From: an uncultured Selenomonadales bacterium
GTDB lineage: Bacteria; Bacillota; Negativicutes; Selenomonadales; Selenomonadaceae
Reading direction: 5' to 3'
DNA length: 62,118 bases
NCBI GenBank assembly: GCA_946536825.1
Contig: CAMNEX010000001.1
Coordinates: 1-62,118 of the forward strand
Under the pieces are notes generated by a model that was not told the DNA's origin, made no database searches, and worked only from the letters and a program-made list of their open reading frames with translations. A program made the position numbers and the translations under genes. This document shows, in pieces, positions 8,971 through 55,745 of the stretch (positions within the stretch are counted from its first letter, which is position 1; every line of letters begins with the position of its first letter).

Positions 8971-8979
8971 TGATATAAT
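8971..8979 (+). promoter_or_regulatory. Extended -10 promoter (TGaTATAAT) for the 9014 gene
   Basis: TG at 8971-8972 and TATAAT at 8974-8979, about 35 nt upstream of ATG 9014. The listed ATG 8978 overlaps this box. Confidence 0.4.
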
Positions 8980-9013
8980 GGGGCGCGAAAAATTTTTTGG
9001 AAGGAGATTTTCA

Positions 9014-12000
9014 ATGGCGGAAACATATTTTCCCATGCTACCGAAAGTCAACGAAGAAATATCAAAAGTTCTCAAGGACACGGCGGGCGAATGGAAGGAA
9101 ACGGATATAAATTTTCTGCAGGGATTGGCGAACAGCCTTGACTGCGGGGAATCGATAAAGGAAATGGGCTCGGTTGATTCAATCCCTGACATGTGGGCGC
9201 GTCCTTTGCTGTTCAAAATGGCACTGTTCGATTTGGAGCCGACAAAACAATTTGTGACGGGCTTGCATGAAAAAGTTCGCGGGGAGTGGCGTGCACTTTT
9301 GGCAATGTTCGCGCTGAAAAATTACAAGCAACTCGACTTGAAGGCGGAGCAGGTAAATTTACTTGAAGAAAAATCCGAACTTGGAGAAATTTTAAAATCG
9401 CTCGCGCCGCAAGAATCATTGACGGGAAATAAAAATGCGTGGCTGACGGACGTATACATAATTTATTTTAACGGACAGCCGCTGGCAATGACTTCGCCAA
9501 CGACGTTGGTAACCTGCGCGGCGGATTATGAAAACGTATTCGCAGGGAAAATTTTCACGCCGTGGAGCGCGAATCAAAGAACTTTAAGCGACCCGATAAA
9601 ATTTTTAACGCCCGACGAACTTGCCGCGCTGAAAATTTGGTTGGAAAATCTTTACGAGAAAATACAGCGAGCGGAAAAAATCGGGGCGAAGGCAAAGGAA
9701 ATATCGAACGCGCTTTTGAAATGCTTGGCGGAATATGAGCGCGACGTAGCTTCCGCGCAGACTTCCGGGACGCAGAATTTTGAATTTGTCGCGTCGAATT
9801 TAAATTTACATGTGGGAGTGGCGCGGCTCCTCGACGAAACGATTAAAGGCAGGGAGGCGCGTTTTGAAGATTCCGCCGTCAGACTGCTGAACGGCGAGAA
9901 AAATTTGCTGTTGGTGTCGCCGGAATTGGTCAGAGATTTTGCGCGGTTTGAAGGCGTCGACGCGGCGCGGCTGGTCGTGTGGCAGGGAATAAGCGCGAAC
10001 GAAATAACCGACGAAAAACTTTCCGACAGGAAAAAAATCGGGCGAACAGCTTTAAAAGGCGCGGAATTTCGCAAGCCCGAAGATTTTTTCTTTGAGCGTA
10101 TGGCAGTCGTCGAGCCGGCGAACGCCTTCCCGAACTCACCGAAAATTCAAGGCGCGGAAACTTTATCGGAAAAAGATTTGACGCCGATTTTGCCGCTCAA
10201 GCGCGAGCTGTTTGAAATATTTTCGCCCGAAGAAATATCTGCGCGGCTGGGAATTTCGGACGATAAGGAAAATTTTTATCTGCATTTCAATTTCCCGCTC
10301 AGCGGAGTTGACGGCGACGGGAAAAATTTCCGCTGGACGAAGACTTATCCCAAGCGCGAGCTTATTTACATTGACCAGGAAGTTCCAGTCATTGAGATTT
10401 TCCCCGACTTTCGCCGCGCAGGTTGGAAGAATTATTTTCTGTACTATGAAAATTATCGGGCGCAATCGGGCGAAGAAAATCTTGCCGCGGATATTTATTT
10501 TGTTGAGCCGCTGAATCACGCGGAAAATTTCTTGACGAACAGATTCACGGCGCGGCTTGAGGCTTTCCCCGAAATTTTAATTTGCAAATACAATCCGCCG
10601 CCGCATGTCGGCAAGCCGCCTTACGAAGTGGGAGCAATCCTTTTGAATAAGCCGAAAAAAATCGAGCGGAATGCGGGCTTGAGTTGGAAAATCGGCGTGG
10701 ACTTCGGCACAAGTTCGACGATGGTTTTTTATGCCGAGAACGAAAATTCTCCGCGCCCATTGAATTTTTCGCCGCATTTGTACAAAGTCACCGAGAGCGG
10801 CGGAGCGCGTGCGCAAACTTATCGGCATTTCATACCGTCGCAAATGCCTGCGCGGGCGGACGGTTCATTTCTAAGCATATTCCATTTGCTCAATATCGGG
10901 GAGCTGAAAAAAATTCGGGCGTTGCAGGACGGGCACGTTTTCTTATTGAGCACGGAAAATACGCGGGTATTCGAGCAAATGGCGGCGCAAATCGACGCGA
11001 ATTTAAAATGGGCGGACGACACGCGGCAACGACGCAAAACGGCGGCTTACATAAGTCAAATTTGCCTGCAGGCGTCGGCGGAGGCGGTTGCAGTCGGTGC
11101 GGACAATATCCAATGGAATTTTTCATATCCGACGGCGTTTTCACAGGCGCAGAAAATTTCGTTCCAAGAAATATGTCGGGAGGCAGTCGGCGGCGCGGCT
11201 AATTTTTGGACGGAGAGCAAAGCGGCGGCGTATCACTTCAACAAAATGGACGGCAAAGCGGGCAATTTCGCGCAGGGTGCAATTTGCGTCGACATAGGCG
11301 CGGGCACGACCGATATTTCCGTAATCAGCGGGGAGCCGCCGCGCATTGTCTATCACACGTCGATAAGATACGCGGCGCGGCAAATGTTCAAGCCGATTTA
11401 TGACAATTACGAGCTGTTCGCGGGCGAAAAAATTTCCGACAAACTCCAAGACGAAACTAAGCGGCAAGCGGTAATTGATGCGGACATGCGCGAGCACAGC
11501 GAAAAATATTTGGCGGATTTAAAATATAAAACGGGCGTGGAGCAAATTAAAAACGTCCTGCAGGCGGCACAATTCGCGACGGCGGGCTTATTCCACTATC
11601 TGGGCGAGCTGATTAAAATTCTGCATGACTACGGGCATTATCGCGAGAAAAAAATCCCGCATGTATTCGTTGGCGGCAACGGCGCGAGGATTTTTAAATG
11701 GTTAGCGGGCGGCACCGAGCTTGACGGCAATATTTATCTCAACGTCCTTGAAAAAATTTTCGTGGCGGCGACCGGGCTTGAGGGTTACAAGAAATTTAAT
11801 CTACACATGAGTGCGCAACCGAAAATCGAGGTGGCGGCGGGCATGATAGTCGAGAAACCTGCCAACGACGAGGAATTTTTTGACGAAGAGAAAATTAATC
11901 GGGAAATGTTCGGAGCGGCGGACGAAATAATTTACTCGGCGGTATTGGCGGGCGCGGATTTTAATCAGGGCGGCGAGCGGCAAGCGGCGTTGTCGTTTAT

Positions 12001-12715
12001 CAGTGCGCATGACATTTCCGAGGGCGTCACGATTCAAACTTTGCGGGAGTTCAAAATTTTTGCCGAGCGATTTAACGGGGCGCAAAAACTTTGGGCGGCA
12101 GGAATTGATTTTGAGGAAGAAGAAATTGTCCGCGACGCCAATAATTTTTACGTTGACAAAAAGGGGCGCGATGTTAAAAAACTTTTGATCGAGCCGATTT
12201 TTATCGCCGAATTGAAAATGTTTTTAGGGACAAGGAATTTGGGCACGGGGAAAAGTAAAATTTCTTTGGCAGAAAAAAAATTTACGAGCGCAGAAAAATC
12301 CGTCGGAGAAAATTTTGTCAACGACTTCAACGCGCTGGAGAAATTAAGCGGCTTCAGTTCGCGACAGGCGCGGGAGAAATTTTTGACGCGCTACAAAGTG
12401 CGGGCGTTCAGCTGTGCGAACGTCGAAGAGCGCATGAACAATCCGAAAGTTGCGCCGAAATTTTCAACGGCGGCGAGCGTGGCGGGCGGCGATTTCTGGG
12501 CTTGTGCAGTCGACGGAAATATTTTCGCGGTCGTCCCCAACCTCAAGACTTACACGGAAAATCACCACACGGAGCGGGCGTTCGGAGCGGTTTTTGAATC
12601 GAATTTTGCGGACGGCACTTATTCGCGACTTCGCGTCGAGCGGGCGGCAGTCTTCGAGCTTGTCGGCAACGAGTGGATTTTAAAATTCGCAGGCAAAATC
12701 ATTTTGAGTAAATAG
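9014..12715 (+). CDS. Giant (1233 aa) Hsp70/actin-fold ATPase-like protein with large N- and C-terminal extensions
   Basis: Phosphate-1-like GVDFGTSSTMVF, phosphate-2-like CVDIGAGTTDISVI, adenosine-like HVFVGGNGARIF, in the canonical order. ATG 9014 lies behind GGAAGGAG. Own promoter and upstream terminator. Confidence 0.65.
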   Translation: MAETYFPMLPKVNEEISKVLKDTAGEWKETDINFLQGLANSLDCGESIKEMGSVDSIPDMWARPLLFKMALFDLEPTKQFVTGLHEKVRGEWRALLAMFALKNYKQLDLKAEQVNLLEEKSELGEILKSLAPQESLTGNKNAWLTDVYIIYFNGQPLAMTSPTTLVTCAADYENVFAGKIFTPWSANQRTLSDPIKFLTPDELAALKIWLENLYEKIQRAEKIGAKAKEISNALLKCLAEYERDVASAQTSGTQNFEFVASNLNLHVGVARLLDETIKGREARFEDSAVRLLNGEKNLLLVSPELVRDFARFEGVDAARLVVWQGISANEITDEKLSDRKKIGRTALKGAEFRKPEDFFFERMAVVEPANAFPNSPKIQGAETLSEKDLTPILPLKRELFEIFSPEEISARLGISDDKENFYLHFNFPLSGVDGDGKNFRWTKTYPKRELIYIDQEVPVIEIFPDFRRAGWKNYFLYYENYRAQSGEENLAADIYFVEPLNHAENFLTNRFTARLEAFPEILICKYNPPPHVGKPPYEVGAILLNKPKKIERNAGLSWKIGVDFGTSSTMVFYAENENSPRPLNFSPHLYKVTESGGARAQTYRHFIPSQMPARADGSFLSIFHLLNIGELKKIRALQDGHVFLLSTENTRVFEQMAAQIDANLKWADDTRQRRKTAAYISQICLQASAEAVAVGADNIQWNFSYPTAFSQAQKISFQEICREAVGGAANFWTESKAAAYHFNKMDGKAGNFAQGAICVDIGAGTTDISVISGEPPRIVYHTSIRYAARQMFKPIYDNYELFAGEKISDKLQDETKRQAVIDADMREHSEKYLADLKYKTGVEQIKNVLQAAQFATAGLFHYLGELIKILHDYGHYREKKIPHVFVGGNGARIFKWLAGGTELDGNIYLNVLEKIFVAATGLEGYKKFNLHMSAQPKIEVAAGMIVEKPANDEEFFDEEKINREMFGAADEIIYSAVLAGADFNQGGERQAALSFISAHDISEGVTIQTLREFKIFAERFNGAQKLWAAGIDFEEEEIVRDANNFYVDKKGRDVKKLLIEPIFIAELKMFLGTRNLGTGKSKISLAEKKFTSAEKSVGENFVNDFNALEKLSGFSSRQAREKFLTRYKVRAFSCANVEERMNNPKVAPKFSTAASVAGGDFWACAVDGNIFAVVPNLKTYTENHHTERAFGAVFESNFADGTYSRLRVERAAVFELVGNEWILKFAGKIILSK

Positions 12716-18215: not shown

Positions 18216-18576
18216 ACTCGTTGGAAGAATTTTCAGCGGGAATTTCAACCGCCAAATGAGAAAACCAACTGTCAGCCGCCGCGCCGTGCCAATGCTTGAC
18301 TTCGGGCGCAATGTTGACTACGTCGCCGGGCTTGAGGGCTTGCGGAGCTTTGCCCCATTCCTGATACCAGCCGCGTCCGCCCGTCACCAAAAGAATTTGC
18401 CCGCCCTTGTGGTGTATGTGCCAATTATTTCTGCAACCGGGCGAAAATGTCACGTTGGCGATTGCGCCGCCCTCTTTAGTCAGCGGATTCAAATACGCCT
18501 GTCCGATAAAATATTTGCTAAACTGTTCGGGGAGCGGCTTGCCCACTTCAAACACACTCGGATTTTTAATTTCCAT
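18172..18576 (-). CDS. Cupin domain protein
   Basis: 134 aa. Cupin motifs …PGCRNNWHIHHKGGQILLVTGGRG… and …GDVVNIAPEVKHWHGA…. AAGGAG RBS. Confidence 0.8.
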   Translation of the reverse strand: MEIKNPSVFEVGKPLPEQFSKYFIGQAYLNPLTKEGGAIANVTFSPGCRNNWHIHHKGGQILLVTGGRGWYQEWGKAPQALKPGDVVNIAPEVKHWHGAAADSWFSHLAVEIPAENSSNEWLEPVDDEQFSKLK

Positions 18577-19744
18577 TGTTATACACTCCTTTTCCTAAAC
18601 TGTGAAAAATTTTTTCTTGAGACTTAATAAATTCCTGCCTGAAGGAAATGACATGCTCGCCATAAACAAGCCCTTTATTTTCAATCGCCGCAATCAGCGA
18701 CTTATCATAATCCGTCGTAAGCACAAGGTGTGGCAACTCCTCGCGAGTTGTATCGCGGATTAAATCGCGGAAATTTTCTTCGTCATAAATAAAAATCTTG
18801 TCGGCAAGAAAATTTTTCTCCCTCAATAACCCTGCCAAAATTTTCATTGATTCGGGCGAACGTATGACGCGGACGGAGGCGAAAAATTTTTTCGGCAGAT
18901 ATTCAAGAAGGGATTCTCCGCGCTTAATTCTTCTAAGCAACCGTTCAAATGCCAATTTTATAAGCGTAAGGGACATCATATTTGCTTCATAATCTTGATT
19001 AGCCATTTGAGAGCGGAGCGGACGCAAATCATAGCCGAGTTGCGAAAAAACTTCAACATAAAAATCCGCGTTAAAATTATGCCAGTTATGACAACCAAAA
19101 GGCAAATTCCCGCCCAGTTTTTTTACACAGCGTTCGGGATACCATTCCATTGAAAAAGCTTTGGCGACTTTGACGGGCGCGGTGTGGAAATCAACTTCAC
19201 TTGCCGCACCGCATAAGGCGAAGAACGTGTCTTCTATAAATTTTTGAGGAAGTTTATCCCAATCCGAAGAACATTTTGTCAAAAGTTTGTGGCAAGCCTT
19301 GACTTTGCGAAGAGAAAAGCCGCCGTTGCCGACTCGCGGCGTTTTTTTTATTTTCACAGTGCGATAACTCGAAGCATTCCAAGAAGGATAAGGCCACGGC
19401 GCACCGATGTAATCATAACCGAGCGAGCAAAAATCCTCCAGCGCGTCATAGAAAACAAAGGCGTCGAGCTGATAAATCAGTATGTAATCGAAAATCAAAA
19501 ACGGTTCATAGAAAAACGGCGACAACAAAAGTTGGCTGTAGGTTTCGCGACTTTGGAAATATTGCGGGTGGAATTGAACAAGCATATCGCCGGGCTCAAG
19601 GTAAGAAATTTTTTTATCTTGAGGCGCGACAAAGATAATCGGATACCTTCCCAAAACTTTTCTGACCTGCGCGAGCGAAATTTTTTCCAGCTCGTTAATT
19701 TCTTCTTTGTAAATCGGGATAACCACAGCGACATTTGCTGACAA
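18566..19744 (-). CDS. DUF5672-like putative glycosyltransferase, tandem paralog B
   Basis: 392 aa. Motifs …YDYIGAPWP… and …VGNGGFSLRKV…. TTG start after AAGGAG. Overlaps the cupin start by 11 nt. Confidence 0.55.
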   Translation of the reverse strand: MSANVAVVIPIYKEEINELEKISLAQVRKVLGRYPIIFVAPQDKKISYLEPGDMLVQFHPQYFQSRETYSQLLLSPFFYEPFLIFDYILIYQLDAFVFYDALEDFCSLGYDYIGAPWPYPSWNASSYRTVKIKKTPRVGNGGFSLRKVKACHKLLTKCSSDWDKLPQKFIEDTFFALCGAASEVDFHTAPVKVAKAFSMEWYPERCVKKLGGNLPFGCHNWHNFNADFYVEVFSQLGYDLRPLRSQMANQDYEANMMSLTLIKLAFERLLRRIKRGESLLEYLPKKFFASVRVIRSPESMKILAGLLREKNFLADKIFIYDEENFRDLIRDTTREELPHLVLTTDYDKSLIAAIENKGLVYGEHVISFRQEFIKSQEKIFHSLGKGVYNNGN

Positions 19745-19750
19745 AATTTT

Positions 19751-20908
19751 TCACTCCTTGCCCAAGCTATGGAAAATTTTTTCTTGAAACTTAATAAACT
19801 CTTTCCTGAAGGAAATGACATGCTCGCCGTAAACAAGCCCTTTATTTTCAATCGCTTCGATTAAAGACCTGTCATCATTTTCAGCGATTATCAGATGCGG
19901 CAGTTTTTCGCGAGTCACGTCGCGGATTAAATCGCGGGAATTTTTTTCGTCATAAATAAAAATCTTGTCGACAAGAAAAATTTCCTCCGTCAACAGGTGC
20001 GCCAAAAGTTTCATGGCGGCGGGCGAACGTATGACGCGAATTGAAGCGAATTTTTTTGCAGGCAGATATTGCAGGAGAGTTTTATTTTTGAGGTCGCGAA
20101 TAAGCCGCTCCATTGCAATCATTTCCAAGGAACGCGGCAAAAACCATTCGTAATCGTTCGTATGCATTTGAGAGCGGAACGGGCGCAAGTCGTAGCCGAG
20201 CTGAGCAAAAAGTTCAACGTAAAAATCCGCGCTGAGCTTCGTCCAGCCGTGGCAACCAAAAGGCAAATTCCCGCCAGATTTTTTTAAATAGCGGTCGGGA
20301 TAATGTTCCATTGCAAAGAGATTTGCGACTTCGACGGGCGCAGAATGAAAATCAAAATTTTTATCCGCTCCGCAGTAAGTAAAAAAGCTATCCTCGGAAT
20401 CGCTTACAACGCCGTACAACGCGAAAAAGCTGTCTTGTGCAAGGTTATTTTCCCAATTCGGCAGAAAAGAACATTCGGTTAAAAGTTTATGGAACGCTTT
20501 GACTTTGCGAAGAGAAAAGCCGCCGTTGCCGACGCGTTTAACGCCCCACGAGACAGGCCACGGCGCACCGATATAATCATAACCGAGCGAGCAAAAATCC
20601 TCCAGCGCGTCATAGAAAACAAAGGCGTCGAGCTGATAAATCAACATGTAATCGAAAACCAAAAACGGTTCATAGAAAAACGGCGACATTAAAAGTTGAC
20701 TGTATGTCATGCCGCTTTGGAAATATTGCGGGTGGAATTGAACGAGCATATCGCCGGGCTCAAGGTAAGAAAATTTTTTACCTTCGGGCGCGACAAAGAT
20801 AATCGGATACCTTTCCAAAACTTTTCTGACTTGCGCGAGCGAAATTTTTTCGAGGTCGTCAATTTCCTCTTTGTAAATCGGAATAACCACAGCGACATTT
20901 GCTGACAA
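19751..20908 (-). CDS. DUF5672-like putative glycosyltransferase, tandem paralog A
   Basis: 385 aa. The first ~118 aa are ~90% identical to paralog B and share its motifs. TTG start after GGAAGGA. Confidence 0.55.
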   Translation of the reverse strand: MSANVAVVIPIYKEEIDDLEKISLAQVRKVLERYPIIFVAPEGKKFSYLEPGDMLVQFHPQYFQSGMTYSQLLMSPFFYEPFLVFDYMLIYQLDAFVFYDALEDFCSLGYDYIGAPWPVSWGVKRVGNGGFSLRKVKAFHKLLTECSFLPNWENNLAQDSFFALYGVVSDSEDSFFTYCGADKNFDFHSAPVEVANLFAMEHYPDRYLKKSGGNLPFGCHGWTKLSADFYVELFAQLGYDLRPFRSQMHTNDYEWFLPRSLEMIAMERLIRDLKNKTLLQYLPAKKFASIRVIRSPAAMKLLAHLLTEEIFLVDKIFIYDEKNSRDLIRDVTREKLPHLIIAENDDRSLIEAIENKGLVYGEHVISFRKEFIKFQEKIFHSLGKE

Positions 20909-20914: not shown

Positions 20915-22375
20915 TCATCCTTCCATGTTGGTGCGCGTTTTATGGAGCAAACTCATTTTCATATCGTAGTAATCGGGCGTCATATCCAAGTAGTGTCGGT
21001 GCGGATTCTCGAAACGTTGCTCCTCCTGCCAAATTTCGTGTTCAAGCTGATATTTAACGTAGTCGCGAATTTCATTGAGCGGCGGCAAATTTTCTGTGCG
21101 CCGCCCGTCCTTGACGTAAAGCCGCGAAAGTTTTTTTGCAGTGCAGTTTGCAAAGGCGCGATTTTTCCACGGCTTGACCGGATCGACGTAGCGATAAGGC
21201 GTCATCATGTCAACAGGCTCGTCCATAAGCGCAATTAAATCTGCCACGGCGTGCCCGTCCTCGTTGTACACGCGATAAATATTTTTCAAGCCGGGGTTGG
21301 TGATTTTCTCGACGTTTTCGCTGACTTTAATTCGCGGAATAAATTTTCCGCCCTCCTCAACCGCAACGATTTTATAAACCGCGCCGAATACAGGTTCAGA
21401 CTTCGCAGTTATCAAACGTTCGCCGACGCCGAAACTGTCAATCGCCGCGCCTTGACTTATCAGAGAAGTTATCGTGAATTCGTCGAGGCTGTTTGACGCG
21501 ATAATTTTGCAATCGTTCAAGCCCGCGTCGTCAAGCATTCTGCGAATTTTTTTAGACAGATAAGCCAAGTCGCCCGAATCAATTCTGACGCCTTTAAGAC
21601 GCTTGCCTTGCGGCTCCAAAACTTCTTTGGCGACGCGAATTGCGTTGGGTATGCCGCTGTGAATTACGTCGTAGGTATCGACAAGGAGCATTGTGGCGTT
21701 GGGATAAACTTCCGCGTATTTTTTGAAAGCCTCGAACTCATCGCGGAAATACATAACCCAACTGTGCGCCATTGTGCCGTTGACGGGAATATTAAAAAGT
21801 TGTCCTGCCGAGACAGTCGCCGTGCCGTTCACTCCGCCGATAAAAGCCGCTCGCGCTCCGTAAGTTGCGGCGTCCATGTTGTGAGCGCGGCGGGCTCCGA
21901 AGTCGGAAACGAAGCGTCCTTCCGCCGCCCGAACAATTCTGCGCGCCTTGGTTGCGATAAGCGATTGATGATTTATCTGCGCCAAAATCGCCGTCTCGAC
22001 CAGTTGCGCGTCGATTAAATCCGCCACGACCGTCATAAACGGTTCGTTAGGATACATTATCGTACCTTCGGGGAAGGCGTAAATATCCCCGCGGAAATGA
22101 AAATCTTTGAGGCTCTCAAGAAAATCTTCGTTGAAAATTTTTTGCCCGCGCAGATAGTCAATATCCGCCGCGCTGAACTGCATATTTTCCACGTATTCGA
22201 TAACCTGTTCAAGTCCCGCGAAAATCGCGAAGCCGCCGGCGTCGGGGTTTCGCCGATAGAACACGTCGAACGCTACGCGAGTATTTTCGCCGCCCTGCAC
22301 AAAATAGCCGTTCGCCATCGTCATTTCGTAGAAATCCATCATCATGCTGATATTTCTTTTATCAAATTGCGACAT
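20915..22375 (-). CDS. pncB: Nicotinate phosphoribosyltransferase
   Basis: MSQFDKRNISMMMDFYEMTMANGYF... is a typical NAPRTase N-terminus. ATG 22375 lies behind GGAGG. The listed 766-aa ORF extends spuriously upstream, antisense to ftsZ. Confidence 0.85.
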   Translation of the reverse strand: MSQFDKRNISMMMDFYEMTMANGYFVQGGENTRVAFDVFYRRNPDAGGFAIFAGLEQVIEYVENMQFSAADIDYLRGQKIFNEDFLESLKDFHFRGDIYAFPEGTIMYPNEPFMTVVADLIDAQLVETAILAQINHQSLIATKARRIVRAAEGRFVSDFGARRAHNMDAATYGARAAFIGGVNGTATVSAGQLFNIPVNGTMAHSWVMYFRDEFEAFKKYAEVYPNATMLLVDTYDVIHSGIPNAIRVAKEVLEPQGKRLKGVRIDSGDLAYLSKKIRRMLDDAGLNDCKIIASNSLDEFTITSLISQGAAIDSFGVGERLITAKSEPVFGAVYKIVAVEEGGKFIPRIKVSENVEKITNPGLKNIYRVYNEDGHAVADLIALMDEPVDMMTPYRYVDPVKPWKNRAFANCTAKKLSRLYVKDGRRTENLPPLNEIRDYVKYQLEHEIWQEEQRFENPHRHYLDMTPDYYDMKMSLLHKTRTNMEG

Positions 22376-22592: not shown

Positions 22593-23762
22593 ATGTTTGA
22601 AATCGAAGACCCTACATTAGACCAACTGGCGAAAATAAAAGTAATTGGAATAGGCGGCGGCGGCTCCAACGCCGTAAACAGAATGATTGAGTCGGGATTG
22701 GAGGGCGTGGAGTTCATTGCGGTTAATACAGATTCGCAAGCCCTGCTTATGAGTAAATCGCCCAAGAGAATGCAAATCGGCGAAAAATTGACAAGGGGAT
22801 TGGGCGCGGGAGCTCGTCCGGATATTGGCGAACGCGCCGCGCAAGAAAGTCGCAATGATATTCTTGAAGCTCTGCGCGGGTCGGATATGGTTTTCATAAC
22901 GGCGGGCATGGGCGGCGGAACGGGAACAGGCGCGGCTCCGGTTGTGGCTGAATGCGCTCGCGAAGTCAACGCGCTGACTGTAGCCGTTGTTACTCGCCCG
23001 TTTACTTTTGAAGGTCCCAAACGTAAAAAAAATGCCGACGCAGGCATTGAGAAATTAAAAAAGAATGTCGACGCGATTATCACAATCCCCAACGACAGAC
23101 TTTTGCAAGTTGTCGATAAGAAAACGCCAATGACAAAAGCTTTTACGATAGCCGACGATATTTTGCGCCAGGGCGTCAAGGGCATTTCGGATTTAATCGC
23201 GGTGCCGGGCGTCATAAATCTTGATTTCGCGGACGTTCAATCGATAATGAACAACGCAGGCTCCGCGCTTATGGGCGTTGGCGAGGCTTCGGGCGATAAT
23301 GCCGCGGTTGAGGCAGTTAAAAAAGCTATTGCCTCCCCGCTTTTGGAAACGAGCGTTGACAGTGCCCGCGGAATTCTTTTGAATTTCATGGGCGCGACCG
23401 ATTCCCTGTCAATGATGGAAGTCAATGAGGCGTCGACTACCGTTCAAGAGGCGGCACACCCCGACGCCGAAATTATTTGGGGCGTCAGCGTCGACGAATC
23501 CTTGGGCGATACCATTGTCGTAACGATTATTGCGACGCGCTTCGGCGAGGAAGAAGAAGTTCCCGTCAAAAAAGAAATTCCCGCAACAAAATTTTATCCC
23601 CCGCCGACTCAACAAAATCAACAACAATACACACAGCCGACTTCGGAGCCGCAACCTTATAACAGAACGCCTCAGCCAAGACAGGAGGAGCCGCCGCAAT
23701 CCAGAAATACTTTCGCGAATATAATCCCCGACTTCATGACCAATCGCCGCAACAGAAGATAA
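22593..23762 (+). CDS. ftsZ: Cell division protein FtsZ
   Basis: [10 protein letters not shown], tubulin signature GGGTGTG (nt 22911-22931), T7 loop NLDFADV, Q/P-rich linker and C-terminal peptide IIPDFM. Confidence 0.95.
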
Positions 23763-23779
23763 TTTTTGACGGAGGGTTG

Positions 23780-24598
23780 ATGATGTTTGAAAACAATATA
23801 GATAACCGATTTGTAAAAATTAAAGTTGTCGGCGTCAACACTGCGGACGAAGAAAAACTTTCGGGCGGGCTTGCCGCCGTTAATTATATGTTGGGAAAAA
23901 ATTTGCAGGGTGTGAATTATCTGGCAGTCGACAGGCAGGACGTTAAAAATCTTGAAGGTTGCAACGCGATTCACAAATTTCGACTGCTGAATTCCGACGA
24001 CGAAAAAATTTTAACAGAAAATCTGCGCGGAGCAGATTTAATTTTTATCGCGGCAGATGAGGTCTGGGAAAATATAAAAGCTGTCGCGCTTGTTGCTCAT
24101 TGCGCGAAGAAAATCGGCGTGCCCGTGATTTTTATAGCGGGCGGAAATTTCGAGGACGCGGAAGATGAAATTATTTTCGACGCGCTGATAAAATTGCCCG
24201 GTAAAAATTTTGAATTTGACTCCTGTAAGGTCGTTCAAAATTTTGTCGAGATAATAACTTTGGAGGGACAGCCGAAACTTGATATTAAAGTTTTTTCGGA
24301 GCTCGTGAAGGATTCCGGCGCGTGTATAGGTTACGGCGAGCGCGAAGGGAAAAATGCCGTCGTGAAAGCCGCCAAAGCCGCGCTTGAGCAGGTTGAAAAT
24401 TCTTCGGAAAATTTCAAAGCCGCCGAAAAAATTTTATTCAACATAACCGCCGCCAAAGGAAATTTATCTCTGGAGGAGGCGCAAAAACTTTCGCGGCTTT
24501 TTAAACGCCACGCGCCCAAAGCAGAAATTTTATTCGGCTTTTCAATCGATGATTGGCTTGTCGACAAAGTAAAATTTTTACTCGTCACAGTGCAATAG
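23780..24598 (+). CDS. Degenerate FtsZ-like paralog lacking GTP-binding and T7 catalytic motifs
   Basis: Collinear with FtsZ: IKVVGV / GVNYLAVD / ADLIFIAA / VPVIFIAGGNFE / GACIGYGEREGKNAVVKAAKAAL / ILFGFSIDD. The GGGTGTG position reads ADEVWEN. GGAGGG RBS 14 nt after the ftsZ stop. Confidence 0.75.
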   Translation: MMFENNIDNRFVKIKVVGVNTADEEKLSGGLAAVNYMLGKNLQGVNYLAVDRQDVKNLEGCNAIHKFRLLNSDDEKILTENLRGADLIFIAADEVWENIKAVALVAHCAKKIGVPVIFIAGGNFEDAEDEIIFDALIKLPGKNFEFDSCKVVQNFVEIITLEGQPKLDIKVFSELVKDSGACIGYGEREGKNAVVKAAKAALEQVENSSENFKAAEKILFNITAAKGNLSLEEAQKLSRLFKRHAPKAEILFGFSIDDWLVDKVKFLLVTVQ

Positions 24599-24602
24599 AA
24601 AA

Positions 24603-24632
24603 ATCCCTGCAAAATCGGCAGGGATTTTTTTT
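24603..24632 (+). terminator. Rho-independent terminator after the ftsZ-like gene
   Basis: ATCCCTGC-aaaatcg-GCAGGGAT followed by T8. Confidence 0.65.
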
Positions 24633-32073: not shown

Positions 32074-33396
32074 CTAGACGCTTAAGCCCGCCGCCTTGAT
32101 TAAAATAAATATCGCAAGCCCGACAACCGAGCCGACGATTGAACCGTTTAATCTTATCCAGATAAAATCTTGCTCCGCCTTGTCGTAAACCAAATTGTTT
32201 AATTGCTCCTCGGTCAGCCGCTCCAACGCCGATTTTGCGACCGTCCCGACAAGCGGTTGCGCGTGAAGTGCCGCCCGCGCTGTCAATTCGTCGACAAATT
32301 TTTCAAAGGCATTTTTCGCTGCAGAATTTTCCCGCAAAAGCCGCAAAAGATTGTCGTATTCTTCATTGAATATGCCTATCAGCAGAACGCCCAAACTTTT
32401 TGTCTGCAATTTTTTTGGCGAACGCGCCCTTTCCAAACTTTCTTCCAAATCGGTTGTCGTTATCTGATTTTCTATGTGAATCAGCGCGAGTTCTATCGCC
32501 TCTTCCAACGGCAATTCGTTCGCCGCGTCAATTTGTATTCGCTCGACCAAATCTTTAAATTCGGGCGTGTCGCTCAGCTCCGAAATTTTTTTGCGGCATT
32601 CGTTAAAGGTTCGGCGGTGTATTTGCGTATCCAATGACAATTCGTCCAACAATTTCAACAGCTGAACTTGCATTATCCGCGCCGCTTCCTCAAAATTCAC
32701 CAAATCCAACATTTGCGCGAGCCCCGCCATTAAAATCGAAAAGCCGCCCATGTTTTTTGTTTTTTCTTCCGCGTATTTTTCTAAAACATCTTGAAGTTTG
32801 TCGCAAGTTTCGGGCTTTGCCGCCGTCCGACGCATTGCCTTGATTATTCCGATAAAAATTTCTTTGTCCTTGCCGGTTTTTTTGAACTTCGCGCCGAAAT
32901 CGTTTATAAAATTCTGCGCGGGCAAGTCGCGAATAATCCGCCGCAATTCGTTGGCAATTTCCTTGGAACGCTTTTCCTTATTCTGCGCCGTGACAAATTT
33001 TTTTACAACGTTGAAAAGTTCCCCGACAATAATTTTGCGCGTCGAATCCTTTGCAAGATAATCGACAATGCGCGGCATAAGTTTAAAATCGCCGAGCTTT
33101 TTAAAAATATTTCTTCGCGAAAAAAATTCCTGCTGAACCATTACTACCGACGCTTTTATAAAATCTTTTCTTCTGCGCGGCAAAATCGCCGTGTGAAAAG
33201 GAAAGCCCAGCGGTTTTTTGAAAAGTGCCGTCACCGCGAACCAGTCCGCTATTCCGCCGACGAGTGCCGCCTCCGTGACAAATAAAAAACCTTCCGAGAC
33301 GACGCTTCCCGGAAACGTAATTTTTATTCCGACTGCCGCCAAAAAAAACAACGCGGCGCAAAGTAAAGTTGTATCCGCCGTGTTCCACCTGTTCAA
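32074..33396 (-). CDS. DUF445-family membrane-associated protein, paralog 1
   Basis: GGIADWFAVTALFKKPLGFPFHTAILPRRRKDF near the N-terminus and IRLNGSIVGSVVGLAIF at the C-terminus. TTG start after GAGAGGTG. Confidence 0.7.
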   Translation of the reverse strand: MNRWNTADTTLLCAALFFLAAVGIKITFPGSVVSEGFLFVTEAALVGGIADWFAVTALFKKPLGFPFHTAILPRRRKDFIKASVVMVQQEFFSRRNIFKKLGDFKLMPRIVDYLAKDSTRKIIVGELFNVVKKFVTAQNKEKRSKEIANELRRIIRDLPAQNFINDFGAKFKKTGKDKEIFIGIIKAMRRTAAKPETCDKLQDVLEKYAEEKTKNMGGFSILMAGLAQMLDLVNFEEAARIMQVQLLKLLDELSLDTQIHRRTFNECRKKISELSDTPEFKDLVERIQIDAANELPLEEAIELALIHIENQITTTDLEESLERARSPKKLQTKSLGVLLIGIFNEEYDNLLRLLRENSAAKNAFEKFVDELTARAALHAQPLVGTVAKSALERLTEEQLNNLVYDKAEQDFIWIRLNGSIVGSVVGLAIFILIKAAGLSV

Positions 33397-33411: not shown

Positions 33412-34806
33412 TCAACGTGCAAAATTTTCTATGACTTGAGCAACGAGATATAAAAACATGCCGACAATCGCGCCGCAAACCGAACCATTGATACGAATCA
33501 TTTGCAAATCGTCCGCAACATGCCCCTCAACAAATTCCGTCAATTCGTCGTCACTGAACTTATCCAATCGCTCGCGAATCATCAGCGGTATTTGTCCGCG
33601 ATATTCTTCCAACAAATTTTCCACAAAATCTTTTATCATCGCGTCAAATTTTTTCTGGAACTCTTGATTCTGTATGAACTCGTCAATCTTCGCGTCAACC
33701 AGAAAGTCCGCCGCGTCCTTCCAAATTACCGGCTTGCGCTCAATTTCCACAATCCGCGACACGTTCGGATTAGCCGCCTGTTGCCGACGCAGTTTTTCCA
33801 AAATTTTCGGGTCGGTCTCGCCTTTAACATTAACGTCAAGCCACGTCTTTATAAAATTCTCCGAGTCAAATTTCTGCAGGAAAAGATTTTTAAGGTCCTC
33901 AAGAAATTTTTTCGTGTTCAGACTGCCCATCGCCGATTTCACGAAGCCGCCAAAAGTTTGAATCATTTCGTCCGCCGCCCGCGCAGTTTCGCTGTCAACC
34001 ATGCCCGTCATATTTAAAACCTTTTCCGCATCGTTAATCTTTTTGTCGACAGTCTCGTTGAGGATATTTAAAATTTTTTCGTCCGTCAAATCCATACTCG
34101 ACAAAACCAACGCCCGCCCCGCCGACTCGCCTTCGTAAGCCTCGCGCAATTCGGTTATCTTCTTCAAAATTTCTTCCTGCATGTGTTCGCTTTGCAAAAT
34201 TTTGTGTCCCGTGTCGAAAAGCGCGATTAAAATTTTTCGGCTGTGCTTATCGCTCGTCACGACTTTTATCACCGCGGCGAAAAGTTTTTCCGCGTCCAGA
34301 TTTTTAATTTCGTTCTCCAAAATCGGCGCAACGTCCCGCGAAATTTTCTTTGTATCCAGTTCGCTGAAAAGTTCATTTAAAACTTCCCGAACCAAAACTT
34401 TTGTCTTGGCGCGTCCGTTATTCTGCTCAAAATAATCAATCAAAAGTTGCGCGGTATTTTCGTCGCGAACGGTTTCCATAATATTTTTCGTGTTCAAAAG
34501 GTCGGTGCCGACAAATTCGACAATCGCGTCCATAATTCGTCCGCGATTGCGCCTCAAAATTTCCGTGTGAAAACCAATTCCCAACGGCTTGCGGAAAAGT
34601 GCAGTCACGCCGAACCAGTCAGCCATGCCGCCGATTGTCGCCGCCAAAAATCCATGATTCAAAAGTCCGAGCGCAAAATTTCCGCCCGCGCCCGACAAAA
34701 TAAATCTGAGCGGAGAAATTTCCGGCAAAGTCGAGACCGCCAAAAGTGCACTCGCCGCCAAAGTTGCCGTCGCCTTTGTTTTGTTTTGCAAAAAGTTCAC
34801 CTCCAT
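33412..34806 (-). CDS. DUF445-family membrane-associated protein, paralog 2
   Basis: GGMADWFGVTALFRKPLGIGFHTEILRRNRGRI and IRINGSVCGAIVGMFLY. The true start may be TTG 34791, since the listed ATG-GAG-GTG looks like its RBS. Confidence 0.7.
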   Translation of the reverse strand: MEVNFLQNKTKATATLAASALLAVSTLPEISPLRFILSGAGGNFALGLLNHGFLAATIGGMADWFGVTALFRKPLGIGFHTEILRRNRGRIMDAIVEFVGTDLLNTKNIMETVRDENTAQLLIDYFEQNNGRAKTKVLVREVLNELFSELDTKKISRDVAPILENEIKNLDAEKLFAAVIKVVTSDKHSRKILIALFDTGHKILQSEHMQEEILKKITELREAYEGESAGRALVLSSMDLTDEKILNILNETVDKKINDAEKVLNMTGMVDSETARAADEMIQTFGGFVKSAMGSLNTKKFLEDLKNLFLQKFDSENFIKTWLDVNVKGETDPKILEKLRRQQAANPNVSRIVEIERKPVIWKDAADFLVDAKIDEFIQNQEFQKKFDAMIKDFVENLLEEYRGQIPLMIRERLDKFSDDELTEFVEGHVADDLQMIRINGSVCGAIVGMFLYLVAQVIENFAR

Positions 34807-48631: not shown

Positions 48632-48701
48632 GCCGCCCGAAAAAGTAATTCTATTCGGTACAAAAAGTTATCTACGAGGTAACCACATAAAAAATTTTTT
48701 G

Positions 48702-48741
48702 TGTTATAATCTTTCAGCTGAAAAAATTTTTTGGCTGAAAG
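48702..48741 (+). promoter_or_regulatory. Extended -10 promoter (TGtTATAAT), immediately followed by a perfect inverted repeat (candidate operator)
   Basis: TG at 48702-48703 and TATAAT at 48705-48710. Inverted repeat CTTTCAGC (48711-48718) / GCTGAAAG (48734-48741) flanks the palindromic core AAAAAATTTTTT. Confidence 0.45.
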
Positions 48742-48764
48742 ATTTTTTTGACGGGAGGATTTTT

Positions 48765-49748
48765 GTGAACAGCTTTGATAAATTTGATGATATAGAACAT
48801 TTGGTTGAAGGGGTTCTCGTCGGGTTGCGGGCGCGAAAGGAAATTGAGCCGCTCCGAAAAAGAATTTCCGAGCTTGAAAAAGCGATAGAGGCTTTCCGAG
48901 AAGAGTGCATTAAACTGCGCGAGGAAAGAGATTTTGAAGCGGATTTGTATAAGGCTCTCAAAAATGATTACGACGAAATTAATCAGCAACTCGACGACGA
49001 ACAAAAAATTTCTTCGGAGCTTAAACGTTCGGTAAAAGCTTTGAGCGAGGAGCGCGACAAGTTGCGCGACGAAAAGGATTTTGAGACAAAGCTTTATAAA
49101 ATTCTCAGAAAAGATTATGACGAAGCCAATCAGCAACTCGACGAAGAGCAAAGAATTTCTTCGGAGCTTAGGCGTTCGGTAAAAACTTTAAGCGGCGAGC
49201 GCGATAATCTGCGCGATGAAAAAATTTCTCTGGAAAAGCAGGTCAAAACTCTGACGAATCGCCTTGACGACGCGAATAAAAAAATTTCCGAATCGGAAGC
49301 GAAACGCCGCGACGCCGAAGGCACCGCAAATTTCTATCGCGACACTTACGGCGAACTCGACGCGGCTTATAAAATTTACTCGACGCTGAACGGCGAGACG
49401 CGCTTTGATTTGGCGGGGATTTTCGGGGCGGGCGATACCGCAAAAGGTTTTTTGAGCGGCGCGGTTCAGGAGTCGCATTTGAATTCTTTCTGGGATTATG
49501 TCAGCCGCCACCCCGACGAAGAAAATTTGCAACGCCTGTTCGATTTTTGCTTTGCGGCGTTAAATCTCGGATTTCGCGAGGCTCCCTACACGCGGCTAAA
49601 CGTCGCCTGCGGAAATGATTTTGATGATGAATTCATGCGGCGCACTTCGCAAAGTCCGCAAATGGGCAACGTCGTCCGCGTCGTGTTTCAAGGCTATCGT
49701 TATTCTTCCGGCAACGTCGTCAAGAAAAGCGTTGTCGAATTGGGTTGA
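48765..49748 (+). CDS. Coiled-coil protein with a GrpE-like C-terminal domain (candidate nucleotide-exchange factor)
   Basis: GTG 48765, 6 nt after GGGAGG. ~190 aa of heptad-rich helix including two 49-aa repeats. C-terminus CGNDFDDEFMRRTSQSPQMGNVVRVVFQGYRYSSGNVVKKSVVEL follows the GrpE beta-domain pattern. Confidence 0.45.
   Translation: MNSFDKFDDIEHLVEGVLVGLRARKEIEPLRKRISELEKAIEAFREECIKLREERDFEADLYKALKNDYDEINQQLDDEQKISSELKRSVKALSEERDKLRDEKDFETKLYKILRKDYDEANQQLDEEQRISSELRRSVKTLSGERDNLRDEKISLEKQVKTLTNRLDDANKKISESEAKRRDAEGTANFYRDTYGELDAAYKIYSTLNGETRFDLAGIFGAGDTAKGFLSGAVQESHLNSFWDYVSRHPDEENLQRLFDFCFAALNLGFREAPYTRLNVACGNDFDDEFMRRTSQSPQMGNVVRVVFQGYRYSSGNVVKKSVVELG
48915..49208 (+). repeat. Two in-frame 147-bp (49-aa) tandem repeats inside the coiled-coil gene
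   Basis: LREERDFEADLYKALKNDYDEINQQLDDEQKISSELKRSVKALSEERDK versus LRDEKDFETKLYKILRKDYDEANQQLDEEQRISSELRRSVKTLSGERDN. A third unit begins but diverges. Confidence 0.8.
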
Positions 49749-49762
49749 GAAAGGAAAATTTT

Positions 49763-52700
49763 ATGGATACAAAAAAAATCGCCGTCTTTCCCGTCGACGA
49801 AAAAACTTTTGCCGATTACAGCGACGCCAAACTCAAGCGCGTTATCAGCTTGGCGAGTGATAATTTCTCGGAAAAATTTTCGGAACTCTGCGCGGAATTC
49901 AAGACGCGCTTTGCCGCCAACGAATGGATTCAAATGGGCAACAAGGACGTTTATTATATCAACGATATTGTCGGGCTCATGCCCAATTTATATAATTTTG
50001 ATTCTGCTGGTCACTCTGAATATTATGGTTACAGTGAATCAACTGACAGATATAAATTCGGGGGATTCCAAGGCGATTTAATGACTGGAAACGAAGCTCG
50101 TAAGTGTTTCAATGACAGAATAAATTATTTCAGAAACAGTAACGGTTATATTGCTCATAAAAATGGAAATTGGTACGAAGGATTAACTTATAAAGATGGT
50201 TCGGAGTATTGGTGGATGTACACTAACAATTCTTATAAATATTCCATTGGTCTCCATAATACCAGAATGAATTACTATCATTACAATGTTTCTATGTTAA
50301 GCGTTCCGATTTATCGCTTTAACGGCAAGGACAGTTCGCCTGCGACAGCACTCGCCGCAATTTTTTATTGGTTTGAATACAACTTAACGCCCAAAACTGT
50401 CAAGTCAGCCAATACAAAAAAACTTTTTAACGAGCTGAAGATTTTCTACGCCACGCAAAAAGAATTCTTGAAAACTCAATGCGAGCAAATTGCCCTTGAC
50501 GAGAAAAAACTTTTCGAGGCAGTCAAGGCGGGCAAAACCTTCGATTTTCTGAAACTCGACTTCCTCAAGGAAAAAACTATCGACGGGCGCGAATACGAAA
50601 CTAATCTGCGCGACGAACTTTTATCCTGCGACAATCGGCGAGTGGCTCTTGACCGCTACGACGAAAAAATTTTGACCGATCCAAATCGCGGACACTGGGA
50701 TTTATGGGACTTGCCCGAAGAAGACGAGCACGGCATTAAACTCAATGAAACGATTTACGCCCGCAACCCCGCCGCCGATGTCAACACCGCCGGTATCGTC
50801 GGAATTGATTTCGGGACAAAATCAACCGTCGTAGTCTATGAAAACGAACGCGGCGAAATTATTCCGTTGCAGGTCGGCAAGGGCGATTACTCAAAAGGCA
50901 TCAAGGCTGAAAATTACGAGAACCCGACAATTATTGAATTCCGCCACATTGAAAATTTCCTTGAGGCATATTCCGCCCGCGCAGGTCGTCCAAAAACTTC
51001 GTGGAACGACGTAACTGTTTCGCACACCGCCCGAACAAATTTGCAGAACACCAACGACAGCAGTTTGTTCGCGTCCTTCTTCGAGAATATCAAGCAGTGG
51101 TGCGGCAATATCCAATACACGACAAAAATCCGCGACCACGACGGCACGGAAAAAGATTTGCCGCCCTTCCTCGACATTTCCAAGGACGAATTCAATCCCC
51201 TGGAATATTACGCCTATTATCTCGGCTCCTATATCAATCACATGCTCCGCCCCAATCATATTTTCATGAAATACATTTTGAGTTTCCCCGTCATGTACGA
51301 ACGCAATATCCGCGAGCGCATGTTGAAGGCTTTCCGCGCAGGCATTTTAAAATCTCTGCCGACCGCGCTTTTGGACAACGAAGACGCAATGAAAGATTTC
51401 CAAGTCGTCGAGGGCACGAGCGAGCCCGCCGCTTATGCTGTCACTGCGCTTGACGGTTACGGCTTTTTGAATGGCGAGGAAAATGACGGCGTTTATTATT
51501 CGGTCTTCGACTTCGGCGGCGGCACGACAGATTTTGATTTCGGCGTCTTGAAACTCGCTGAAGATGACGACGCAGATTTTTATGATTATGTCCTGACGCA
51601 TTTTGGGGCACACGGCGACAGGACGCTGGGCGGCGAAAATCTTTTGCGGCTTATGGCGTTTGAAATTTTCAAGGCGAACAGCGACAAACTTTTGAAGCCG
51701 CGAGAAAATTCCAAAGTGAAAATCCCGTTCACATGGGCGGCAGAAAAAACCGAGTTCGCCGGCTCTGAAGGCTTAATTCGTTCGTCGCAGGAAGCCAACC
51801 TCAATATGCATAATCTTATGGAGGCGTTGCGCCCAATTTGGGAGGCTCCAAACTCCGACGACGCTAAAAAAATTCTGGAATCGGGCACCGTAACTTTAAC
51901 GGTCTTCGACGACGCCGGAAAAGAACTCACCGGCTTTACTCTGTCAATCGGCTCGCAAAAAACCCCCGACGAAGTTAATCCCCTGCCGACAGTGCGGGCT
52001 AAGCCGACAACAACCGCCTTTGAAGTTCCTGCAACAGAATTCAACAAAATTTATAGTCAAGCGTGGGAAGAAGGGGATTTCAATGCAATAAAACAATTAG
52101 GCGAATGGGCAATCCGCGGACACAATGAATCGCTTGTAAATCTTGAAAAGCTTAGCACTGCCGATTATGTTAACGCAACTGAAATTTTATGGAAGCTTAA
52201 AGCAGATAAAAAAATTCCCGACGCGGAGCCGGAAGTCAAAGTTGAGCCGAAGAAAATTGCGCCGCTCGTCGACCTGAACAAAATTTTGCGCGAGAGAATT
52301 TGCCGCGGCATTGACAACTTTTTTATTTCCCTGCGTGACGCCTTCGACAAGATCAGCGGCGGCGAAGATAACGGCGTTGCGGCATTGAGCGACGTGACGG
52401 AGATTGGGATTTTCCTTGCGGGCAATTCGACGAAATCCGCGCTCGTCAAGAAACTTTTCGAGGAATACATTGACACGGAAAAGGGCAAGGCACGCAAGCT
52501 TTTGGGTTTCGGCAATCCGCAGAAAATGCCGCGTTTTGTTTTGTATTCGCCGCTGGGCACCGACGAGGCATATAAAATTCAGGAGTCAAAAGACTTGCCT
52601 GTCGACAAAAATAATTTCGCCGCTCCGACGGGCAAAACAGGCGTGGCGTTCGGGCTGTTGCGTTGCAGAGACGGCTCGGCAATTCGCGTCGTCGACATCA

Positions 52701-53044: not shown

Positions 53045-53117
53045 AAAATATTTTCTGCGCGGCTTTTCATGTTGACGGCGGCGCAATAAATTGATAATTT
53101 TTATGGAGGAAAATTGA

Positions 53118-53465
53118 ATGGCAGATTTTTTGACGGAGCGAACGAAATTTTACTGCGTGGCGGCTCCGGCGGTGAATTTCTCAATTTCAATGTCGGGTAA
53201 AGTCACGCACCGAGGCGCAAAAGTTTTGACGACGGCGGCGAAGTTGTCAGGCAAAGGACTTTGTCCGAAATTAACGGCGTTTATGCAATCTCCGCAACAG
53301 TGCCAATTCAAACAAACGCCGTGGCTGAATTTCGATTTAAAATGCAAAGCCGAATCAAAAAATTTGTTGATGGCGGATTCCTTTTGTAGCTGTCCTGTAC
53401 CTATATGCGCCGGCACGGTCGTGAAAGTCCGCTTGGCAAGGGCGCAAGGATTTAAACAAGCATAA
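53118..53465 (+). CDS. PAAR-like (DUF4280-like) small Cys-patterned protein
   Basis: 115 aa. FYCVAAP…GKGLCPKL…CQFKQTPW…SFCSCPVPICAGTVVKV resembles the DUF4280 Cys/Trp spacing. ATGGAGG RBS. Confidence 0.45.
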   Translation: MADFLTERTKFYCVAAPAVNFSISMSGKVTHRGAKVLTTAAKLSGKGLCPKLTAFMQSPQQCQFKQTPWLNFDLKCKAESKNLLMADSFCSCPVPICAGTVVKVRLARAQGFKQA

Positions 53466-53477
53466 GGAGGAAAATTT

Positions 53478-55730: not shown

Positions 55731-55745
55731 GGAAGGGGTTTCCAA

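Follow-up and report, generated by a model that had tools for sequence, protein, structure and literature searches.

A conserved FtsZ-fold protein, predicted to be a pseudo-GTPase, encoded directly downstream of ftsZ in Quinella-type Selenomonadaceae

The FtsZ-like domain of plastid ARC3 is without GTPase motifs. ARC3, which carries this domain, directly inhibits or regulates Z-ring assembly (PMC12232670; 10.1101/2024.01.08.574726). In bacteria, truncated FtsZ paralogs are described from the Hyphomicrobiales (Agrobacterium FtsZ1 and FtsZ3), where overexpression of FtsZ1 blocks division (10.1101/2025.09.29.679267), and MciZ, SulA, and MipZ cap or sequester FtsZ by attaching to its ends or faces (PMC8936486, PMC9897490, PMC11938149). 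In a survey of 304 Firmicutes, FtsZ is handled as a single-gene family (PMC8136486), and the Quinella genome paper, which describes large oval diderm cells with a "Gram-positive type" of division, makes no mention of an FtsZ paralog and is silent on ftsA, sepF, and zapA (PMC9585023). Our literature search found no description of FtsZ paralogs in Quinella or the Negativicutes. Here, we describe such a paralog, encoded directly after ftsZ in a 62,118-nucleotide (nt) stretch of DNA (the window; GenBank assembly GCA_946536825.1, contig CAMNEX010000001.1, positions 1 to 62,118, forward strand) from an uncultured Selenomonadales bacterium. Homology, predicted fold, motif loss, strict synteny, purifying selection, and family history make its identity as a conserved FtsZ-fold pseudo-GTPase paired with ftsZ secure, and they uphold the noncatalytic FtsZ-fold paralog, co-transcribed with ftsZ, that had been proposed in a preliminary description of the sequence.

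The paralog is like canonical FtsZ (TIGR00065; PF00091 plus PF12327) in its homology, two-domain fold, MFE... N terminus, and recognizable FtsZ_C domain, and it is clearly derived from Selenomonadaceae FtsZ; it is unlike canonical FtsZ in that it has a broken T7 pair and no GTPase signature, linker, or C-terminal peptide. The closest functional analogy would be ARC3, whose FtsZ-derived domain acts on FtsZ, as is proposed for the paralog, and does not itself form the ring, although ARC3 is eukaryotic, multidomain (middle domain, MORN repeats), part of the plastid Min system, and of independent origin, whereas the paralog consists of the FtsZ core alone and shares an operon with ftsZ. Agrobacterium FtsZ1 and FtsZ3 are, like the paralog, lineage-specific ftsZ duplicates without C-terminal elements that are proposed to tune division. 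[quoted passage not shown] MciZ, SulA, and MipZ match the proposed mode of action only, their folds being unrelated to FtsZ. The paralog is not closer to TubZ, CetZ, BtubA/B, or FtsZl-1 than to FtsZ and nests inside Selenomonadaceae FtsZ; it has no Tubulin_2 or TubZ-type Pfam match, the FtsZl-1 and CetZ profiles not having been compared explicitly.

In the window, the paralog follows a canonical ftsZ on the same strand, and the two genes form a unit with the following parts.

22593..23762, + strand: canonical ftsZ, 389 amino acids (aa), with the full GTP-binding motif set, linker, and conserved C-terminal peptide
23771..23776, + strand: Shine-Dalgarno sequence GGAGGG of the paralog, read from the sequence, inside the 17- to 20-nt gap after the ftsZ stop
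23783..24598, + strand: coding sequence of the FtsZ paralog, 271 aa (272 aa from an alternative in-frame ATG at 23780)
24597..24631, + strand: intrinsic terminator hairpin, 14-bp stem and 7-nt loop, closing the ftsZ-paralog unit

The FtsZ of the window scores 178 bits against Pfam Tubulin, 99.6 bits against FtsZ_C, and 431.6 bits against TIGR00065. Its stop codon (23760-23762) is followed by TTTTTGAC and then by GGAGGG, and after this motif come an in-frame TTG (23777) and the two ATGs (23780 and 23783) at the head of the paralog open reading frame (ORF). The start at 23783, 7 nt past GGAGG, is favored by gene callers and by the family consensus (MFENN...); residue numbers below nevertheless follow the 272-aa version counted from the ATG at 23780. 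An ORF directly behind the ftsZ stop and GGAGGG, with a clean terminator after it, had been read from the letters alone, and both stand. The hairpin folds with a free energy of −18.6 kcal/mol (z = −3.76; 0 of 200 shuffles as stable), and its 3' arm is a U-run that continues beyond the hairpin; a simple consensus terminator scan did not list it, and folding did confirm it. By the best explanation, ftsZ and the paralog share a transcript, on which the paralog has a ribosome-binding site of its own for translation. The only FtsZ-like genes found in the window by tblastn are these two, which differ in GC content (43% in the paralog versus 51% in ftsZ). The nearest homologs of the paralog are named "Selenomonadaceae bacterium" and "Quinella sp."; a Quinella-type bacterium of the Selenomonadaceae (Negativicutes, rumen) is the source of the window.

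The block-by-block alignment of the paralog with FtsZ that had been drawn by eye was reproduced by two programs. BLASTP aligned residues 3 to 272 with the FtsZ of the window at 26% identity (E = 2e-13), and hhalign matched the paralog family to the FtsZ family with a probability of 99.75% (E = 2.7e-26), covering FtsZ residues 1-316. As judged from these alignments, the homology extends over the whole globular core and is far beyond chance. A sequence search of the PDB ranked about 40 FtsZ chains, matching paralog residues 151-269 with E of about 2e-10, above a few marginal unrelated matches; all matches with E<0.01 were FtsZ. Among Pfam models, only one part of the paralog rises above the cutoff.

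24320..24586, + strand: FtsZ C-terminal (GTPase-activating) domain, residues 181-269, PF12327 at 37 bits versus a cutoff of 27

The PF00091 Tubulin domain gave no match in the paralog even at E<=1, and TIGR00065 matched residues 150-270 only, at 33.8 bits versus a cutoff of 295.2. The predicted isoelectric point is 5.2.

An AlphaFold2 model built on 28 family members was confident (predicted local distance difference test [pLDDT], 84.2; predicted template-modeling score [pTM], 0.85). The modeled order of elements, S1-H1-S2-(H2)-S3-H3-S4-H4-S5-S6-H7-H8-S7-H9-S8-H10-S9-S10, is that of FtsZ minus H5 and H6, and the top 50 Foldseek matches in the PDB were all FtsZ (E of about 1e-20; template-modeling [TM] scores, 0.70-0.77), which answers the structural comparison that the preliminary description had suggested as a check. 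By the model, the paralog has the tubulin/FtsZ two-domain fold, with a Rossmann-like N-terminal domain, core helix H7, and C-terminal domain.

The elements that form the nucleotide site in FtsZ are altered throughout. Four former loops could be placed by alignment.

23837..23872, + strand: former T1 (G1) loop, residues 20-31, NTADEEKLSGGL, with a 7-residue insertion
24056..24079, + strand: former T4 tubulin signature, residues 93-100, DEVWENIK in place of GGGTGTGA
24140..24181, + strand: former T5 region, residues 121-134, GGNFEDAEDEIIFD, with the end of T5 and H5 deleted (about 17 residues)
24266..24295, + strand: former T7 loop, residues 163-172, GQPKLDIKVF

The glycine loop T1 had been described as disrupted, which is correct as far as the 7-residue insertion goes; it is not simply destroyed, for where canonical FtsZ has GGGGSN the paralog has NT-x4-K-x-SGGL, and Ser28-Gly29-Gly30 are invariant. 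T3, the gamma-phosphate sensor of the canonical protein, is gone, about 19 residues including GLGAGARP being deleted. The replacement of the signature GGGTGTG by ADEVWEN is seen, as claimed, at nt 24053-24073, and V95, W96, E97, N98, and K100 of this segment are invariant. At the T5/H5 position the paralog reads GGNFEDAEDE, and a further deletion of about 17 residues removes H6 and the beginning of H7, a segment that helps frame the nucleotide site in FtsZ. T7 does read KLDIKVF: canonical NLDFADV is replaced in the family by K(L/I)D(I/V)K.., so that N-x-D-x-x-D retains its first Asp only (D168, at least 90% conserved in the family), the Asn having become Lys and the second catalytic Asp being gone (one of three key residues kept). 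The paralog ends with strand S10 (residue 272) and has neither linker nor C-terminal peptide, whereas the neighboring FtsZ has a 70-aa tail; the absence of the FtsA-binding peptide had thus been noted correctly.

In filaments of Staphylococcus aureus FtsZ, hydrolysis requires D210 and D213 of T7 (upper subunit), which hold the catalytic water together with G72 of T3 (lower subunit); R143 and N208 contribute, and N208 coordinates a K+ ion (PMC8936486). The paralog keeps the equivalent of D210 (D168). Because the equivalents of G72, R143, N208, and D213 are lost, canonical GTP binding and hydrolysis by the paralog appear very unlikely, and so does activation of a neighbor's GTPase; loss of GTP binding and of GTP-dependent polymerization is predicted. 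Five of six tested features that define canonical FtsZ are missing from the paralog, the PF12327 domain being the one present, so it is not a canonical FtsZ.

Conservation was surveyed by a pattern scan in which each GTDB species was represented by a single genome; it found 39 loci, all in Quinella or in metagenome-assembled genomes (MAGs) of Selenomonadaceae or Selenomonadales from ruminants. A full ftsZ lies directly 5' of the paralog in every related locus with upstream sequence (41/41). The conservation in the clade that the preliminary description had wished to see surveyed is therefore strict, and the two findings it had named as fatal, an intact pocket and an ORF not conserved in relatives, are both contradicted: the pocket elements are lost and the ORF is conserved. 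The gap between the two genes is 6-30 nt in nearly all loci, the exceptions being L012 (76 nt) and L018 (318 nt), and ACGGAGG(G/A) stands at the same gap position in about 27 of 40 related loci. The ORFs are intact and about 264-282 aa long, except for one version of about 211 aa (L041:9494-10138, protein P0122). Flanking genes vary: pncB and leuA in the window, topA and gyrB in L001, and, in L042 and L044, an SSF transporter and an amidohydrolase upstream with gyrB downstream. Because the flanks differ between genomes, the ftsZ-paralog pair is taken to travel as a unit.

The median ratio of nonsynonymous to synonymous substitutions (dN/dS; Nei-Gojobori, 401 unsaturated pairs) is 0.164 for the paralog versus 0.092 for ftsZ. 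At E<=0.001 there are 184 paralog homologs (about 180 protein clusters); the best 120 of these about 180 clusters are currently unnamed or "hypothetical protein," and the clusters could be renamed FtsZ-like pseudo-GTPases. Across 120 family clusters (90% identity), 41% of alignment columns reach at least 95% identity. Column entropy is 0.74 for the whole paralog, 0.12 for the former T5 GGNFEDAEDEIIFD, 0.40 for the former T4 DEVWENIK, and 0.84 for the former T7. The former T5 is the most conserved segment of all (86% of its columns at least 95% identical among 120 family members); it is joined by S5, the former T4, and H4 as the most constrained segments, and the former T7 is only average. As read from these alignments, the former pocket has been remodeled into a new, strongly selected acidic surface with an invariant Trp and has not undergone relaxed decay.

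Some loci of the survey have features of their own. The 76-nt spacer of L012 (9907-9982) is made of short TAGCTGTTAG-like repeats, and the 318-nt spacer of L018 occupies positions 891-1208. Two distinct ftsZ-paralog loci (L029 and L030) come from one MAG, that of Quinella sp. 1Q7, each with an FtsZ about 84% identical to that of the window and with paralogs 74-75% identical to the window paralog; either the bin mixes strains or the pair has truly been duplicated.

The Quinella paralogs belong to a wider, graded family, which goes beyond what could be seen from the window itself. When 1.84 billion representatives (50% identity) were searched with the profile, the Quinella family came out as essentially a single full-length cluster (502 bits) with fragments; P0122 (247 bits) and P0125 (134 bits) are its two diverged members. 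Short FtsZ-like proteins of about 266-343 aa follow at 82-96 bits; among the matches listed, the best full-length FtsZ (about 375 aa or longer) reaches at most 68.5 bits. The unnamed short set without T3 comprises P0277, P0127, P0270, P0317, P0130, P0129, P0381, P0378, and P0125. T3 is deleted at the same alignment position in 15/15 short forms and in all Quinella paralogs versus 0/10 canonical FtsZ, and the T5/H5 and H6-H7 deletions are additionally common to a subset (P0129, P0381, P0378, P0125, and P0122). The Pfam Tubulin score falls stepwise, from 96 bits in P0277 through 59 bits in P0130 and 24 bits in P0381 to no match in P0125 and the Quinella paralog. Most short forms keep T1 GGGG, a near-intact T4 (GGGTATG-like), and T7 NLDFxD, and some milder ones keep a ..LPPWM-type tail resembling the FtsZ C-terminal peptide; unlike these, the Quinella paralog has lost T1 GGGG, T4, T7, and the tail and has gained the T1 insertion, DEVWEN, and EDAEDE. 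All short forms found are metagenomic, and no cultured organism was named among the matches.

The short forms also stand beside ftsZ. In L045/L046, a spacer of 72 nt separates P0130 from a preceding ftsZ with a core 74% identical to that of the window, and P0125 follows an ftsZ 3' end (L048). The order is ftsQ, DUF881, DUF1290, ftsZ, short paralog in L049 (6183-9490) and L052 (453-3586) and is reversed in L053 (482-3866), where the short paralog is upstream of ftsZ. The dcw cluster of these three loci ends in ftsQ, DUF881, DUF1290, ftsZ with no ftsA between, so the absence of ftsA beside ftsZ, which recurs in these Selenomonadaceae-like loci, is not peculiar to the window. In L049, zapA lies 1.4 kb downstream of the short paralog.

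A neighbor-joining (NJ) tree of 254 columns groups the short forms and Quinella paralogs as monophyletic (100/100 bootstraps), with P0125 as the sister group of the Quinella paralogs (100/100) and the whole group within Selenomonadaceae FtsZ. NJ is a distance method open to long-branch attraction, and the nested insertions and deletions give independent support. The short T3-less FtsZ paralogs are apparently an undescribed graded family with the Quinella protein as its extreme end member; our literature search found no description of a stepwise dismantling of the pocket in which fold, ftsZ linkage, and purifying selection were kept. One old tandem duplication of ftsZ in the Selenomonadaceae was probably followed by progressive dismantling of the pocket, with the fold kept throughout, and the losses would have come in the order T3, then T5/H5 and H6, then T4, and then the T7 catalytic residues, linker, and tail. 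Since the milder relatives keep T1, T4, T7, and some of the tail, the ancestral role was probably co-assembly with FtsZ.

Two companion genes recur in related loci. One is a third FtsZ paralog of about 200-230 aa, likewise out of reach of the preliminary description, which consists of the N-terminal GTPase domain only and was found in 10 species-level related loci. The other is a conserved ORF of about 105 aa (MDANLKIVLDQYFEGAS...) located 25-150 nt 3' of the paralog in about 28 related loci. L042 and L043 are re-fetched versions of L015 and L024.

L042:8012-8689, L043:8072-8680, and L006, L008, L012, L017, L020, L023, and L036: N-domain-only paralog, directly upstream of ftsZ
L028:938-1519, opposite strand: N-domain-only paralog
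L042:10957-11277, L001:8858-9172, L044:10855-11172, and about 25 other loci: 105-aa ORF

The N-domain-only paralog scores 72-100 bits against Pfam Tubulin, has a GGGG-like T1 and a T4 of GLGG(C/F)DGTG, and stops after H7, with no T7 loop and no C-terminal domain. It comes in two subtypes, about 50% and about 32-36% identical to FtsZ, and is not present in the window. The two paralogs mirror each other in the face that is kept, and the N-domain-only form is a closer analogue of FtsZ3 than the window paralog is. The 105-aa protein is 80-91% identical in most loci (68% in L033), which is more than for the paralog; neither Pfam nor NCBIfam has a match for it, and it could be a partner of the paralog. 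Its ORF is absent from the window, where the terminator follows the paralog.

The paralog is probably a functional FtsZ-derived pseudo-GTPase, a nucleotide-independent FtsZ-binding subunit that caps, seeds, or stabilizes filaments; the lack of GTP binding, the binding to FtsZ, and the effect on filaments are what we infer from the features above. It would be unable to polymerize via GTP by itself and would dock on a longitudinal face of FtsZ, altering filament dynamics. This docking model is the most economical because the FtsZ fold is kept, the paralog shares a message with FtsZ, and its ancestors look competent for co-assembly. The T7-exposing end is the one at which FtsZ filaments grow, and incoming monomers present their GTP-bound top face (PMC8936486). 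Docking might take either of two forms. The FtsZ-like C-terminal face of the paralog could sit on the GTP-bearing top face of FtsZ, in a monomer or at the shrinking end; because there is no equivalent of D213 (the second catalytic Asp), the interface would be locked in the GTP state, and the outcome would be a stabilizing cap or seed, or sequestration if the partner were a monomer. Alternatively, the rebuilt acidic, Trp-containing top face could contact either FtsZ, on its T7 face (the growing end), or some other partner. The conservation pattern favors an important role for the top face, and residual FtsZ similarity favors the bottom face as the surviving ancestral contact. In either form, the paralog would tune Z-ring assembly in unusually large oval cells.

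Several points weigh against this mechanism. The FtsZ-like face (C-terminal domain and former T7) is only averagely conserved in the family, and the most conserved face does not resemble FtsZ, so its critical partner may not be FtsZ. Ser-Gly-Gly and Gly-Gly remain near the old phosphate site, where some small ligand may bind. A strict growing-end cap made in an amount nearly equal to that of FtsZ would be expected to be toxic. Finally, the NJ tree puts the paralog clade beside the FtsZ of another Selenomonadaceae sublineage and not beside Quinella FtsZ, and the GC content of the paralog is below that of ftsZ; the history of the paralog may include transfer, or the placement may be a long-branch artifact.

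The constrained top face is also the starting point for a different and rather unlikely account, in which the FtsZ fold now serves a purpose other than FtsZ binding, the former pocket binds a new ligand or protein (a divisome, cell wall, or nucleoid factor), and linkage to ftsZ reflects co-regulation or history. The surface formed by the former T4 and T5 (entropy, 0.12-0.40) is unlike the top face of FtsZ, the former T7 has lost two of its three key residues, and the conserved 105-aa protein encoded 3' of the paralog in about 28 loci could be the real partner. Yet the pairing with ftsZ survives many rearrangements of the flanking genes, the milder relatives with T1, T4, T7, and some tail make ancestral co-assembly probable, and the 105-aa gene is absent from the window, where the operon ends at the terminator. 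Those same milder members, such as P0277 with its GGGG and GGGTATG, together with the full two-domain fold predicted for the paralog and its retained T1-region Ser-Gly-Gly and one T7 Asp, might suggest a second polymerizing, nucleotide-binding FtsZ with a diverged pocket, as in the archaeal or plastid FtsZ1/FtsZ2 pairs. That is very unlikely given the absence of a Pfam Tubulin match, the deletion of T3, of T5/H5 (the region of S. aureus R143), and of H6-H7, and a T4 that reads DEVWEN.

A decaying, functionless tandem duplicate would account for the lost catalytic motifs, the lower GC content, and the one truncated copy of about 211 aa (L041/P0122), but the ORF is intact in about 40 species-level genomes, the Shine-Dalgarno motif recurs in most loci, dN/dS is 0.16, 41% of columns are at least 95% identical (120 clusters), and the predicted fold is confident; we reject decay to a pseudogene as the least probable of the readings considered. 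The preliminary description had also entertained the paralog as a stand-in for a missing membrane anchor, and ftsA is indeed not next to ftsZ in the window or in the related dcw clusters. That the paralog tethers the Z ring to the membrane in place of FtsA or SepF is nonetheless most improbable, and this part of the proposal is rejected: there is no amphipathic tail, transmembrane segment, or other membrane-targeting element, the sole hydrophobic peak is the buried H4-S5 core, and the protein ends at S10. The C-terminal peptide of Quinella FtsZ, PFxNIIPDF(F/M)xNRRNRR, is moreover conserved in all related loci, from which it follows that conventional tail-binding partners and classical anchors should still be encoded elsewhere in the genome.

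If the FtsZ-binding pseudo-GTPase that we favor does bind FtsZ, it would amount to a naturally occurring, genetically encoded means of capping or seeding filaments in which nucleotide plays no part, and the graded family would serve as an evolutionary series from which the parts of FtsZ required for each interface could be read. It may also bear on how the Z ring is built and on the "Gram-positive" division of the very large oval diderm cells of Quinella (PMC9585023). A bolder and improbable extension is that the paralog is a nucleotide-free pseudo-subunit of the Z ring in which the invariant former pocket, acidic and with a Trp (DEVWEN and EDAEDE), stands in for GTP as a docking face that is always "GTP-like," and the dead T7 face freezes the neighbor's GTP; with the N-domain-only paralog and the 105-aa protein, it would make up an FtsZ-derived filament seeding and capping system that sets length and polarity in giant cells. 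Such a system, if real, would have evolved from FtsZ itself and would give bacteria a counterpart of gamma-tubulin or of ARC3-type control.

Pfam scans of 40 ORFs across the 62 kb found no ftsA, ftsQ, or other division gene near the ftsZ pair, in line with the earlier remark that ftsZ is not preceded by ftsA or ftsQ and is divergent from pncB; leuA is the gene downstream of the unit.

20918..22375, − strand: nicotinate phosphoribosyltransferase (pncB), divergent, upstream of ftsZ, with Pfam NAPRTase_N, NAPRTase, and NAPRTase_C

Elsewhere in the window, a 1,245-aa ORF (8978-12715, + strand) lies between an ABC ATPase gene and sufC-like and sufB genes, and its sole family signal is a weak MreB/Mbl actin-fold match at residues 717-828, which stays below cutoff in Pfam (26.9 bits) and in NCBIfam (29 bits). 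A run of large ORFs on the same strand (48699-61499, + strand) includes proteins of 349, 1,099, 750, 363, and 247 aa without a Pfam match, a protein of 467 aa (56190-57593) that carries a Phage_base_V/VgrG-type OB domain, and a divergent ATPase of the Hsp70/actin fold (59150-60742; DnaK model, 185 bits versus a cutoff of 648); it could be a contractile-injection, secretion, or defense island. Two pairs of tandem paralogs are encoded on the − strand, one of DUF5672 proteins with near-identical N termini (18566-19744 and 19751-20908) and one of DUF445 proteins (32074-33396 and 33412-34806).

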